Shown here: piece by piece, positions 4,216 through 44,065 of the stretch
How positions within the stretch are numbered: the first letter of the stretch is position 1
Layout of the letters: the number at the start of each line of letters is the position of its first letter
From: Pristiophorus japonicus
Taxonomy: Eukaryota
Assembly (NCBI RefSeq): GCF_044704955.1
Contig: NC_091979.1
Coordinates: 320,974,001-321,038,000 of the forward strand
Direction: 5' to 3'
Length of the DNA: 64,000 bases
Translations under genes and position numbers: made by a program
The notes under the pieces: generated by a model
Database searches by the model: none
The model's input: the letters and a program-made list of their open reading frames with translations, nothing else
Told to the model about the DNA's origin: nothing

Positions 4216-5540
4216 AGGGCCCCAGCTATTCACAATCTATATCAATGATTTGGATGAGGGGACCAGATGTAATATATCCAAGTTTGCTGATACACAGCCA
4301 GGTGGAAATGTAAGTTGTGAGGAAGATGCAAAGAGACTTCAAGGGAATATAGTCAGGCTAAGTGAGTGGGCAAGAACATGGCAAATGGAATATAATGTGG
4401 AGAAATGTGAAGTTATCCACTCTGGTAGGAAAAATAGAAAAGACGAGTATTTTTTAAATGGTGAGAGATTGGGAAATGTTGGTGTTCAGAGGGACCTGGG
4501 AGTCCTTGTACATGAATCACTGAAAGTTAACATGCAGGTACAGCAAGCAATTAAGAAAGCAAATGGTATGTTGGACTTTATTACAGGAGGATTTGAGTAT
4601 AAGAGTAAAGACGTTTTACTGCAATTATATAGGGACCTGGGGAGACCACACCTGGAGTATTGTGTACAGTTTTAGTCTCCTTATCTAAGGAAGGATATAC
4701 TTGCCATTGAGGGAGTGCAAGGGTCACCAGACTGATTCCTGGGATGGGGGATTGTCCTATGAGGTGTGATTGAGTAAACTAGGCCTTTTGGCTAAGATCA
4801 AGTGTAGTACCGTTTCTGACCAGCCACCATGACCTCCGGGTGGTTTCTCCCTGGTCAGAAAGGTATATGCTTGCATTTTTGGAAACAGGAGGTGGGTGGG
4901 GAGGTTTGACCCATCCACCTCCACGGAGGTGTGTGGGGGACCTGACCCATCCACCTCCATGGCACGAACCTGGTATTGCAGTACTTCCAGGAACGGTGCA
5001 GTGGCTCTAGGCCTTTTGGCTAAGAGCATTGGCGCAGAGTGATCCTTGGCATGTGCAAGGTGACCTCTGGCGTTTGTGATTTGACAAAGAATTGGAACGA
5101 TTGGCTACGAATTTAAAAAAAAAACTAGGCCTATATTCTCTAGAGTTTAGAAGAATGATAAGCGACCGCATTGAAACATACAAAATTATTACAGGGCTTA
5201 ACAGGGTAGATGCAGGATGTTTCCTCTGGCTGAGGAGTCTAGAACCAGGGGCTACAGTCTCAGAATAAGGGGTCGGCTATTTAGTACTGAGATGAGGAAA
5301 ATATTCTTCACTCAGAGAGTGATAAATCTTTGGAATTCTCTACCCCAGAAGGCTGTGGAGGGTCAGTCTTTGAGTATATGTAAGCAGAGATCGATAGATT
5401 TTTAAGGGAATCAAGGGATATGGGAATAGTGTAGGAAAGTGGAGTTGAGGTAGAAGATCAGCCATAATCTCATTGACTGGCGGAGCATGCTCGAGGGGTG
5501 GAATGGCCTACTCCTGCTTCTAATTCTTATGTTCTTATGT
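4216..5540 (+). mobile_element. CR1 LINE 3' portion (RT C-terminus and 3' UTR), interrupted by the U2-derived insert
   Basis: [29 protein letters not shown] and RPHLEYCVQF motifs. CR1 3' hairpin and TTCTTATG tail are present. Confidence 0.9.
4776..5132 (+). mobile_element. U2 snRNA-derived retroposon (SINEU-like element or variant-U2 retrocopy) with poly(A) and 11-bp TSD
   Basis: GGCCTTTTGGCTAAGATCAAGTGTAGTA (4782-4809) equals the U2 5' region. Sm site ATTTTTGG at 4875-4882. ACCTGGTATTGCAGTACTTCCAGGAACGGTGCA (4968-5000) matches U2 stem-loop IV and the 3' end. A-tail at 5115-5124. AAACTAGGCCT is duplicated at 4776-4786 and 5122-5132. Confidence 0.85.
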
Positions 5541-17485: not shown

Positions 17486-20400
17486 AGAAACATAGAAAAT
17501 AAGTGCAGGAGTAGGCCATTCGGCCCTTCGAGCCTGCGCCGCCATTCAATAAGATCATGGTTGATCATTCCCTCAGTACCCCTTTCCTGCTTTCTCTCCA
17601 TACCCCTTGATCCCCTGAGCCGTAAGGGCCATATCTAACTCCCTCTTGAATATATCCAATGAACTGGCATCAACAACTCTCTGCGGCAAGTTTCTCCTCA
17701 TCTCAGTCCTAAATGGCCTACCTCTTATCCCAAGACTATGTCCCCTGGTTCTGGACTTCCCAAACATCAAGAACATTCTTCCTGCATCTAACCTGTCCAG
17801 TCCCGTCAGAATCTTATATGTTTCTATGAGATCCCCTCTCATCCTTCTAAACACCAGTGAATAAAGGCCCAGTTGATCCAGTCTCTCCTCATATGACAGC
17901 CCAGCCATCCCTGGAATCAGTCTGGTGAACCTTCGCTGCACTCCCTCAATAGCAAGAACGTCCTTCCTCAGATTAGGAGACCAAAACTGAACACAATATT
18001 CCAGGTGAGGCCTCACTAAGGCCCTGTACAACTGCAGTAAGACCTCCCTGCTCCTATATTCAAATTCCCTAGCTATGAAGGCCAACATACCATTTGCCTG
18101 CTGTACTTGCATGCCCACTTTCAGTGACTGATGAACCATGACACCCAGATCTCGTTGCACCTCCCCTTTTTCTAGTCTGCCGCCATTCAGATAATATTCT
18201 GCCTTCGTGTTTTTGTCCCCAAAATGGATAACCTCACGTTTATCCACATTATACTGCATCTGCCATGTATTTGCCCACTCACCTAATCTGTCCAAGTCAT
18301 CCTGCAGCCTCTTAGCGTCCTCCTCACAGTTCACACCGCCACCCAGTTTAGTGTCATCCGCAAACTTGGAGATATTACACTCTATTCCTTCATCCAAATC
18401 GTTAATGTATATTGTAAAGAGCTGGGGTCCCAGCACTGAGCCCTGCGGCACCCCACTAGTCACTGCCTGCCATTCTGAAAAGGACCCTTTTATCCCAACT
18501 CTCTGCTTCCTGTCTGCCAACCAATACTCTATCCACATCAGTACATTACCCCCAATACCATGCGCTTTGATTTTGTACACCAATCTCTTGTGCAGGACCT
18601 TGTCAAAAGCCTTTTGAAAGTCCAAATACACCACATCCACTGGTTCTCCCTTGTCCACTCTACTAGTTACATCCTCAAAAAATTCCAGAAGATTCGTCAA
18701 GCATGATTTCCCTTTCATAAATCCATGCTGACTTGGTCCGATCCTGTCACTGCTTTCCAAATGGGCTGCTATTTCATCCTTAATGATTGATTCCAACATT
18801 TTCCCCACTACTGATGTCAGGCTAACCGGTCTATAATTACCCACTTTCTCTCTCCTTCCTTTTTTCAAAAGTGGCGTTACATTAGCTACCCTCCAGTCCA
18901 TAGGAACTGATCCAGAGTCGATAGATTGTTGGAAAATGATCACCAATGCATCCACTATTTCTAGGGCCACTTCCTTAAGTACTCTGGGATGCAGACTATC
19001 CGGACCCGGGGATTTATCGGCCTTTAATCCCATCAATTTCCCTAACACAATTTCCTGCCTAATAAGGATATCTTTCAGTTCCTCATTCTCACTCGACCCA
19101 CTGTCCCCTTGTACATTCGGAAGGTTATTTGTATCTTCCTTTGTGAAGACAGAACCAAAGTATTGGTTAATTGGTCTGCCATTTCTTTGTTCCCCATTAT
19201 AAATTCATCTGAATCCGATTGCAAGGGACCTACGTATGTCTTTACTAATCTTTTTCTCTTCACATATCTATAGAAGCTTTTGCAGTCAGTTTTTATGTTC
19301 CCTGCAAGCTTCCTCTCGTACTCTATTTTCCCCTTCTTAATTAAACCCTTAGTCATAGAAACATAGACATAGAAACATAGAAACATAGAAAATAGGTGTA
19401 GGCCATTCGGCCCTTCTAGCCTGCACCGCCATTCAATGAGTTCATGGCTGAACATGCAACTTCAGTACCCCATTCCTGCTTTCTCATCATACCCCTTGAT
19501 TCCCCTAGTAGTAAGGACTTCATCTAACTCCTTTTTGAATATATTTGGTGAATTGGCCTCAACAACTTTCTGTGGTAGAGAATTCCACAGGTTCACCACT
19601 CTCTGGGTGAAGAAATTCCTCCTCATCTCGGTCCTAAATGGCTTCCCCCTTATCCTTAGACTGTGTCCCCTGGTTCTGGACTTCCCCAACATTGGGAACA
19701 TTCTTCCTGCATCTAACCTGTCTAACCCCGTCAGAATTTTAAACGTTTCTATGAGGTCCCCTCTCATTCTTCTGAACTCCAGTGAATACAAGCCCAGTTG
19801 ATCCAGTCTTTCTTGATAGGTCAGTCCCGCCATCCCGGGAATCAGTCTGGTGAACCTTCGCTGCACTCCCTCAATAGCAAGAATGTCCTTCCTCAGGTTA
19901 GGAGACCAAAACTGTACTCCTCTGTTGAATTCTAAATTTCTCCCAGTCCTCAGGTTTGTTGCTTTTTCTAGCCAATTTATATGCCTCTTCCTTGGTTTTA
20001 ACACTATCCTTAATTTCCCTTGTTAGCCATAGTTGAGCCACCCTCCCAGTTTTATTTTTACTCCAGACAGGGATGTACAATTGCTGAAGTTCATCCATGT
20101 GATCTTTAAATGTTTGCCATTGCTTATCCACCGTCAACCCTTTCAGTATCCTCTGCCAGTCTATTCTAGCCAATTCACACCTCATATCGTCGAAGTTACC
20201 TTTCCTTAAGTTCAGGACCCTAGGTTCCGAATTAACTTTGTCACTCTCCATCTTAATAAGGAATTCTACCATATTATGGTCACTTTTCCCCAAAGGGCCT
20301 CGCACAACAAGGTTGCTAATTAGTCCCTTCTCATTACACATCACCCAGTCTAGGATGGCCAGCTCCCTGGTTGGTTCCTCGACATATTGGTCTAGAAAAC

Positions 20401-43518: not shown

Positions 43519-44065
43519 NNNNNNNNNNNNNNNNNNNNNNNNNNNNNNNNNNNNNNNNNNNNNNNNNNNNNNNNNNNNNNNNNNNNNNNNNNNNNNNNNN
43601 NNNNNNNNNNNNNNNNNNNNNNNNNNNNNNNNNNNNNNNNNNNNNNNNNNNNNNNNNNNNNNNNNNNNNNNNNNNNNNNNNNNNNNNNNNNNNNNNNNNN
43701 NNNNNNNNNNNNNNNNNNNNNNNNNNNNNNNNNNNNNNNNNNNNNNNNNNNNNNNNNNNNNNNNNNNNNNNNNNNNNNNNNNNNNNNNNNNNNNNNNNNN
43801 NNNNNNNNNNNNNNNNNNNNNNNNNNNNNNNNNNNNNNNNNNNNNNNNNNNNNNNNNNNNNNNNNNNNNNNNNNNNNNNNNNNNNNNNNNNNNNNNNNNN
43901 NNNNNNNNNNNNNNNNNNNNNNNNNNNNNNNNNNNNNNNNNNNNNNNNNNNNNNNNNNNNNNNNNNNNNNNNNNNNNNNNNNNNNNNNNNNNNNNNNNNN
44001 NNNNNNNNNNNNNNNNNNNNNNNNNNNNNNNNNNNNNNNNNNNNNNNNNNNNNNNNNNNNNNNNN
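43519..44065. other. Assembly gap (547 N)
   Basis: Run of N. Confidence 1.

Follow-up and report, generated by a model that had tools for sequence, protein, structure and literature searches.

A stretch of 64,000 nucleotides from the genome of Pristiophorus japonicus (contig NC_091979.1, positions 320,974,001 to 321,038,000 of the forward strand), hereafter the window, contains an insert resembling U2 small nuclear RNA (snRNA). The locus raises the question of whether this insert is a retrocopy of a variant U2 snRNA gene or a member of a SINE family derived from U2, and how such a family could be transcribed and mobilised. The insert is bounded by an 11-bp target-site duplication (TSD) at 4776-4786 and 5122-5132, with 335 nt between the two copies ending in 10 A, in agreement with the first-pass annotation, which described an insert of about 340 bp with an 11-bp duplication and a 3' A-tail. 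The Rfam U2 model matched 4776-5006 with 61.5 bits (cut-off 46; E 1e-9; model positions 1-192, its full length), bearing out the U2 modules noted earlier. This is the sole above-threshold Rfam match in the window, and all other Rfam matches at 4500-5400 fall below their own cut-offs. Upon in silico removal of the insert, the host, an old LINE fragment (CR1 by its first-pass label) with approximate limits of 4220-5540, aligns across the junction to eight listed paralogues within the window at 75-78% identity, confirming that a LINE has been split; one of the paralogues sits in an RVT_1 frame at 17576-19204. The only N run of the window (43519-44065) lies within low-complexity sequence where each strand has long frames.

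All parts of the insert are read on the forward strand. Ahead of the nick, at 4770-4778, the sequence contains a target-site motif, T(-6)...R-Y/A, obtained from 45 insertion sites and representing a degenerate Keno site of U2. The U2 head (4782-4809), delimited by the Rfam match and copy alignment, comprises nt 11-38 with stem I and the branch-point recognition sequence; its first five bases, nt 11-15, are also the last five of the 5' TSD copy (microhomology). Full-length members start at U2 nt 1, and the window copy, being 5'-truncated, is without nt 1-10. The head is followed by a remodelled stem II region (4810-4874), predicted from alignment and folding to form with the head a long hairpin (4800-4871), inside which the branch-point sequence would be hidden (z -4.4; 0 of 200 shuffles as good), and by the Sm site (4875-4882; Rfam match and subfamily comparison), which is intact in subfamily A1 and altered in A2 and A3. 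Next come a derivative of stem-loop III in which 36 bp are duplicated internally (4888-4962; alignment) and an almost unaltered U2 stem-loop IV (4962-4999; Rfam match, alignment and folding). The parts between the conserved modules, previously taken not to be U2, are diverged U2, colinear with the U2 gene of the same genome. A second U2 5' fragment at 5007-5025 was found by alignment, and in the least-derived family, C, it reaches U2 nt 38, the Keno site (locus L034). The tail of about 90 nt reported earlier as unique does follow, at 5026-5114 (alignment, folding and motif counts), and is common to the family, but it is preceded by this second fragment of U2; families B and C have related tails. 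Three ATTGG words occur in the tail, with a fourth arising in A2 via duplication. The poly(A) tail occupies 5115-5124, its final three A also being part of the TSD.

A 28-nt motif of the tail has at least 4,151 exact matches in the genome of origin (5.9 Gb), while the heads of A1, to which the window copy belongs, and of its sister subfamily A2 have at least 225 and at least 386, respectively; reversed-motif controls gave 0 matches, and the motif counts are lower bounds. Comparison of the element with the whole genome yielded 1,393 candidates, and all 40 of those scored were full-length at 99-100%. Thirty A1 copies taken in contig order show 89 differences from the reference copy in 10,101 bases, and a single private change at 4859 sets the window copy apart from 29 other fetched copies. 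From 120 loci fetched with internal queries, 100 non-redundant copies were obtained, 66 of them with a detectable TSD. Copies begin at U2 nt 1, as 40 A1 copies do, or lack as many as 23 nt, in which case microhomology is frequent. Since copies occur at many independent loci in differing flanking DNA, an assembly chimera is ruled out. The window insert is thus almost certainly, as judged from these sequences, one copy of a young SINE with a poly(A) tail and flanking TSDs (family A, subfamily A1); the SINE reading offered at first pass is upheld by dispersed, near-identical copies sharing the tail. Among individual A1 copies, that at L264 (G000:C1, about 546.0 Mb) shows 12 differences, 10 of them A-to-G changes, which is the pattern left by an RNA edited by ADAR and then retrotransposed, and a neighbour copy of L017 has a similar A-to-G pattern. 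Another, at L002, interrupts an apparent histone H2B coding sequence, as seen by eye.

The relative age of the subfamilies can be read from tandem stacks, in which the 5'-to-3' order is A2-A1 in 9:0 cases, A1-A3 in 11:0, A2-A3 in 3:0 and A3-B in 3:0 (26:0 in total), the nested TSDs at L012 identifying the 3'-most copy as the oldest. Divergence of the shared core amounts to 0.10% in A2, 0.37% in A1 and 1.43% in A3, in samples biased by the manner of fetching. Since stack order and core divergence agree, A2, the subfamily resident in U2 genes, is the newest.

Beyond family A, a canonical U2 34-mer has 651 matches in the genome, and all 15 inspected loci proved to be sister SINE families rather than plain pseudogenes, built on the plan of family A, with an almost complete U2 followed by another U2 5' fragment, a related tail and poly(A). 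These families, B and C (L031-L045, L068), account for about 370 exact matches by subtraction of two pattern counts, and their copies serve as targets of later insertions. True U2 genes, identified by a pattern for intact stem IIa that has 284 matches, with 30 loci fetched, are of two types, one forming tandem arrays of units of about 765 bp and the other located on C9. Alignment produces a series leading from the array-type U2 gene through families C and B to family A, in which the U2-colinear body is followed by the second U2 5' fragment and the hairpin tail. In family C, a U2 gene together with a few bases of flank is joined to a U2 5' fragment (ending at nt 38 in L034) and a tail, and we infer that this junction may be the trace expected of an insertion at the Keno site. 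The source of the family tail was not found in this genome analysis.

Several features of the U2 loci were also recorded. The C9-type genes (L047-L065, C9:111.0-113.8 Mb) are spaced by about 20 kb, have a different stem-loop IV and a PSE-like motif, and are followed downstream by LINE 3' ends and stacked family-B fragments. In the main U2 array (L077 and other units), the spacer includes a long GTT repeat as well as a GC-rich block present in duplicate. Pieces of the array were found far from it at L139, L286 (C14:76.77 Mb), L066 (C17) and L046 (C1); one displaced piece spans a LINE end, spacer and the next unit, and L046, starting near U2 nt 5 and ending in the 3' box, resembles a retrocopy of pre-U2 RNA.

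The longer units of the U2 arrays result from insertions directly ahead of U2 nt 39, either of a 5.7-kb LINE or of subfamily A2. This LINE encodes a zinc-knuckle ORF1 and an ORF2 with APE endonuclease and reverse transcriptase, the domain set of Keno, and 15 of the 16 long copies on C19 keep a frame of 1,147 codons. Its 3' flank, beginning at nt 39, is the Keno target as published in the accessible text of PMC6136364 and PMC4640811. The nearest named protein matches of ORF2 are from newt (47-49%) and pufferfish (39%), and there are short matches to shark proteins; none of the matches returned was named Keno, and the element is called Keno-like by its domains and target site. At L076 (C1003) and L113-L124 (C19:69.62-69.73 Mb) the LINE has its own variant U2 head, starts at +1 and stacks in tandem at the same site. 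Just past this head is a word that we take to be octamer-like.

The array on C19 has 17 units, of which 11 contain the LINE, five contain A2 and one is intact, and A2 was also found in 5 of 29 units on C1832 and 4 of 30 on C1868. With 16 of 17 units occupied, the C19 array end is nearly full. All of these insertions begin at U2 +1, their own head replacing the 5' end of the gene, and a separate A2 insertion (L099) lies at +1 of a C9-type gene with a PSE-like motif at -62. A genome-wide collection of poly(A)/U2-nt-39 junctions contained 84 cases, 82 of which were classified. Family A accounts for 19 junctions in array-type U2 genes and two in C9-type genes (21 of 82), 21 in copies of families B and C, and one other; for the B/C class, about 1e-4 would be expected by chance, and five of its 21 junctions represent duplicated loci on C8. 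The remaining junctions belong to the LINE (21), to families B and C (4) and to 14 unlabelled elements, those inspected being diverged LINE 3' ends. An A1 copy (L088) is among the poly(A)/nt-39 junctions. Copies that are identical within the arrays may go back to a single insertion multiplied by homogenisation, and independent insertions into U2 genes may be only a few.

These data are best summarised by a reading to which we assign a probability of roughly two in three, namely that family A is a non-autonomous U2-derived SINE moved by the Keno-like Tx1 LINE and transcribed from masters residing in U2 genes. The SINE would have no promoter of its own and would be moved in trans. The LINE endonuclease would nick U2 genes at nt 38/39, with priming on the SINE poly(A). 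Since the cDNA ends in a U2 head, it would join the 5' end of the gene by homology, presumably by annealing, and the SINE would thereby come to start at U2 +1, the position at which it is observed, behind the upstream snRNA promoter. Such resident copies would act as masters, with transcripts that read across the SINE and a long A tract, continue into the remainder of U2 and reach the 3' box of the host gene. A leaky endonuclease would direct most daughters to weak sites resembling the target in other parts of the genome, where, like the window copy, they would have no promoter. Turnover of the array would replace the masters and give rise to the successive subfamilies B, A3, A1 and A2, and truncated insertions at nt 38/39 gain fresh U2 or Keno heads, junctions of this kind being observed and their founding of subfamilies being presumed.

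A considerably less likely account keeps Keno as the mobilising agent and places the main masters among dispersed copies, read through from flanking promoters or LINEs, with the U2 copies as passengers amplified by homogenisation. Transcription from flanking sequence was indeed proposed for SINEU by Kojima in the accessible part of PMC4494074. It would suit this account that no A1 copy is assembled behind the array promoter, the one match being dispersed; the A1 master is therefore lost, unassembled or of another kind. Nor does any of 30 inspected full-length A1 copies lie behind a C9-type promoter. Also in its favour, neither an octamer nor a PSE could be recognised in the DNA upstream of the large U2 array on comparison with the U1 and C9-type genes, although the array does have a 3' box. 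U1 genes have an octamer near -205, exact in 10 of 12, together with a PSE-like motif near -62, and the C9-type gene has a PSE-like motif and no octamer within 330 bp upstream; octamer, PSE and 3' box were called by general consensus motifs. Full-length copies, however, end at U2 nt 1, and no common upstream DNA was present in any of 30 inspected A1 copies, the subfamily resident in U2 genes is the youngest, and array A tracts are long, with a median of 54 in 13 array copies of the derived variant versus 15 in 90 dispersed copies. A T at -1 of full-length copies was considered as a trace of the array promoter and discarded, as it occurs in only 11 of 30.

The traffic between array and genome can be followed by a variant private to the arrays, which has 18 matches, 16 in arrays and two dispersed. 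That it occurs in only two dispersed copies (2 of the 386 A2-head matches, and none of 30 sampled dispersed A2 copies in its exact form) fits dispersed masters. Both of these copies are 100% identical to an array copy, one of them having a TSD, and two copies in the C19 array represent an intermediate state of the variant. The intermediate favours an array-to-genome direction, an unseen master elsewhere being possible. Among 26 dispersed junctions, no family-A copy was found to have transduced the 3' half of a host U2 gene.

The choice of targets outside U2 genes bears on the identity of the mobilising LINE. The Keno-like LINE is also dispersed, with 220 matches to its 3' motif, and in 30 inspected loci its TSDs are similar to those of the SINE. 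A hot spot in the RNase H region of the pol gene of an LTR element contains 9 of 100 SINE copies (at eight loci) and 2 of 30 dispersed LINE copies; both elements also use two sites within an abundant LINE and the 5' side of SINEs already in place, 7 of the 30 dispersed LINE copies abutting a SINE. The target motif was determined from 45 independent SINE sites, with copies lacking a TSD or located downstream of an element left out and the LTR site counted once. As in the U2 site and the window site, T is found at -6 in 30 of 45 (background 0.275, p 5e-8) and a purine-pyrimidine step ahead of the first A in 29 of 45 (p 1e-5). The recurrent SINE targets identified among the flanks inspected are U2 nt 38/39, other SINE copies, the LTR-element pol site and the LINE sites. 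A SINE with a TSD was also found at the equivalent position in the LINE head (L286, L144). The idea that degenerate heads shield elements from re-targeting was rejected, as both LINE and SINE insert into Keno and A2 heads too.

That other L1/Tx1 families, using any poly(A) RNA, moved most dispersed copies and Keno only those at U2-like sites is improbable. It would agree with the finding that about two thirds of SINE copies lie at unremarkable sites (62 of 100 without a special neighbour) and with the dissimilarity of the SINE and LINE tails: the search for a LINE sharing the tail, proposed at first pass, gave no similarity between the SINE tail and the Keno-like LINE (best E 0.59), so recognition is probably by poly(A). 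Against it, dispersed LINE copies use the same hot spots with similar TSDs, and the motif of dispersed SINE sites is a degenerate U2 site. On the basis of these common targets, mobilisation of the family by the Keno-like Tx1 LINE is very probable, which narrows the initial guess of an L1/Tx1-type partner to a U2-targeting LINE of the same genome.

The other possibility raised at first, that the copies are retrocopies of a functional variant U2-like snRNA gene, has become very improbable. Subfamily A1 does keep the branch-point sequence, Sm site and stem-loop IV, and folding predicts a highly structured A1 RNA (z -5.3). In all four folded copies, however, the head is predicted to pair with remodelled stem II, the branch-point sequence being buried, as in A1, or replaced; A2 and A3 have lost this sequence. 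None of the 34 predicted pairs of the head hairpin is changed on both sides among seven sequences, subfamilies turn over, and those copies that are linked to a promoter disrupt a U2 gene by their insertion. The window copy has no upstream PSE or DSE and no 3' box, its flanks being the split LINE. The tail hairpin of the window copy is of weak predicted stability (z -1.1). Judging from the modelled structures, a splicing role of the family RNA is unlikely, and A1 RNA may possibly enter snRNP maturation. Likewise very improbable is an ordinary Pol III SINE driven by an internal promoter, as the words that we take to be box A-like (element positions 246 and 259) and box B-like (133) stand in the wrong order, the latter varies between subfamilies, and T4-T5 runs occur at 15, 105 and 243.

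A more far-reaching joint claim, for which we see an even chance, extends the transcription of a Keno-mobilised SINE from U2-resident masters. The SINE would target its gene of origin, its masters would cycle through the U2 array, and its snRNA-type RNAs may enter snRNP maturation via the Sm site and stem-loop IV; it would compete with Keno, would be independent of crocodilian SINEU and would still be active. As part of this claim, the U2 head would serve as a homology arm for Keno-mediated integration and as a stand-in for the 5' end of the gene.

The SINEU-1, -2 and -3 families of crocodilians (Kojima 2015) are the nearest known relatives in design, and the accessible part of the defining paper reports none outside crocodilians (PMC4494074). 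Family A shares with them the features of the class, namely a U1/U2-derived 5' region, a short multicopy unit of common structure (342 nt, under 500 bp) with poly(A) and TSD, and mobilisation by the Tx1 clade, which is suggested here by common targets. SINEU as described in the same text further resemble family A in having T runs, tandem copies around the TSD, repeated addition of U2 pieces, a Tx1-clade partner without a common tail and partner LINEs with snRNA heads. SINEU prefer Mariner (Mariner-N4_AMi) according to that part of the paper, which mentions no copies inside U2 genes, whereas family A copies lie at +1 of U2 genes. The body of family A, unlike crocodilian SINEU, comes from this genome's own U2 gene variant, which argues for a separate origin.

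Among LINEs, Keno of the Tx1 clade and Utopia are U2-specific, and the partner LINE resembles Keno in its insertion site before U2 nt 39 and its APE-type endonuclease (PMC4640811; PMC6136364). Both are autonomous, with no non-autonomous partner described in the accessible text of these papers, whereas the Keno-like family here has one that it very probably moves and also disperses. The R2 and R2/R1 SIDEs of Drosophila are, by analogy, the closest functional counterpart, being short, non-autonomous, located at a LINE target in a multicopy RNA gene and dependent on transcription of that gene; SIDEs, as presented in the accessible portion of PMC3414825, are internal LINE deletions with a ribozyme and the LINE 3' end, whereas family A is built from the target RNA and is spread genome-wide. 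U2 retropseudogenes and U2/LINE chimeras share TSD, poly(A) and U2 sequence with family A, but they are independent one-offs (PMC4494074, as far as its accessible text goes), while the subfamilies of family A are defined by common deletions, duplications and tails. The accessible parts of PMC5786205, PMC5381603 and PMC4758252 cite SINEU for crocodilians only or without a new taxon. A literature search, thin on subscription journals and without Repbase Reports, found no report of a U2-derived SINE outside crocodilians or of a SINE at the Keno site; it is quite possible that the family is already an unpublished catalogue entry. What is new, and was not anticipated at first pass, is that the youngest subfamily resides in tandem U2 genes at nt 38/39, starting at U2 +1, beside intact Keno-like LINEs.

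The transcription of SINEU was left open by the defining paper, which in its accessible text suggests upstream promoters (PMC4494074), and U2-resident masters, marked by private variants and located beside intact partner LINEs, would address this question. Young copies are candidate population markers. If the proposed reading is true, snRNA-derived SINEs would have arisen a second time here, the evolutionary series of U2 gene and families C, B and A still being present in the genome, and family A would be a Pol II analogue of R2 SIDEs. It would also be a natural example of a short non-coding cargo inserted site-specifically under the guidance of homology, the site being one that is conserved across eukaryotes, and so of relevance to targeted gene insertion.
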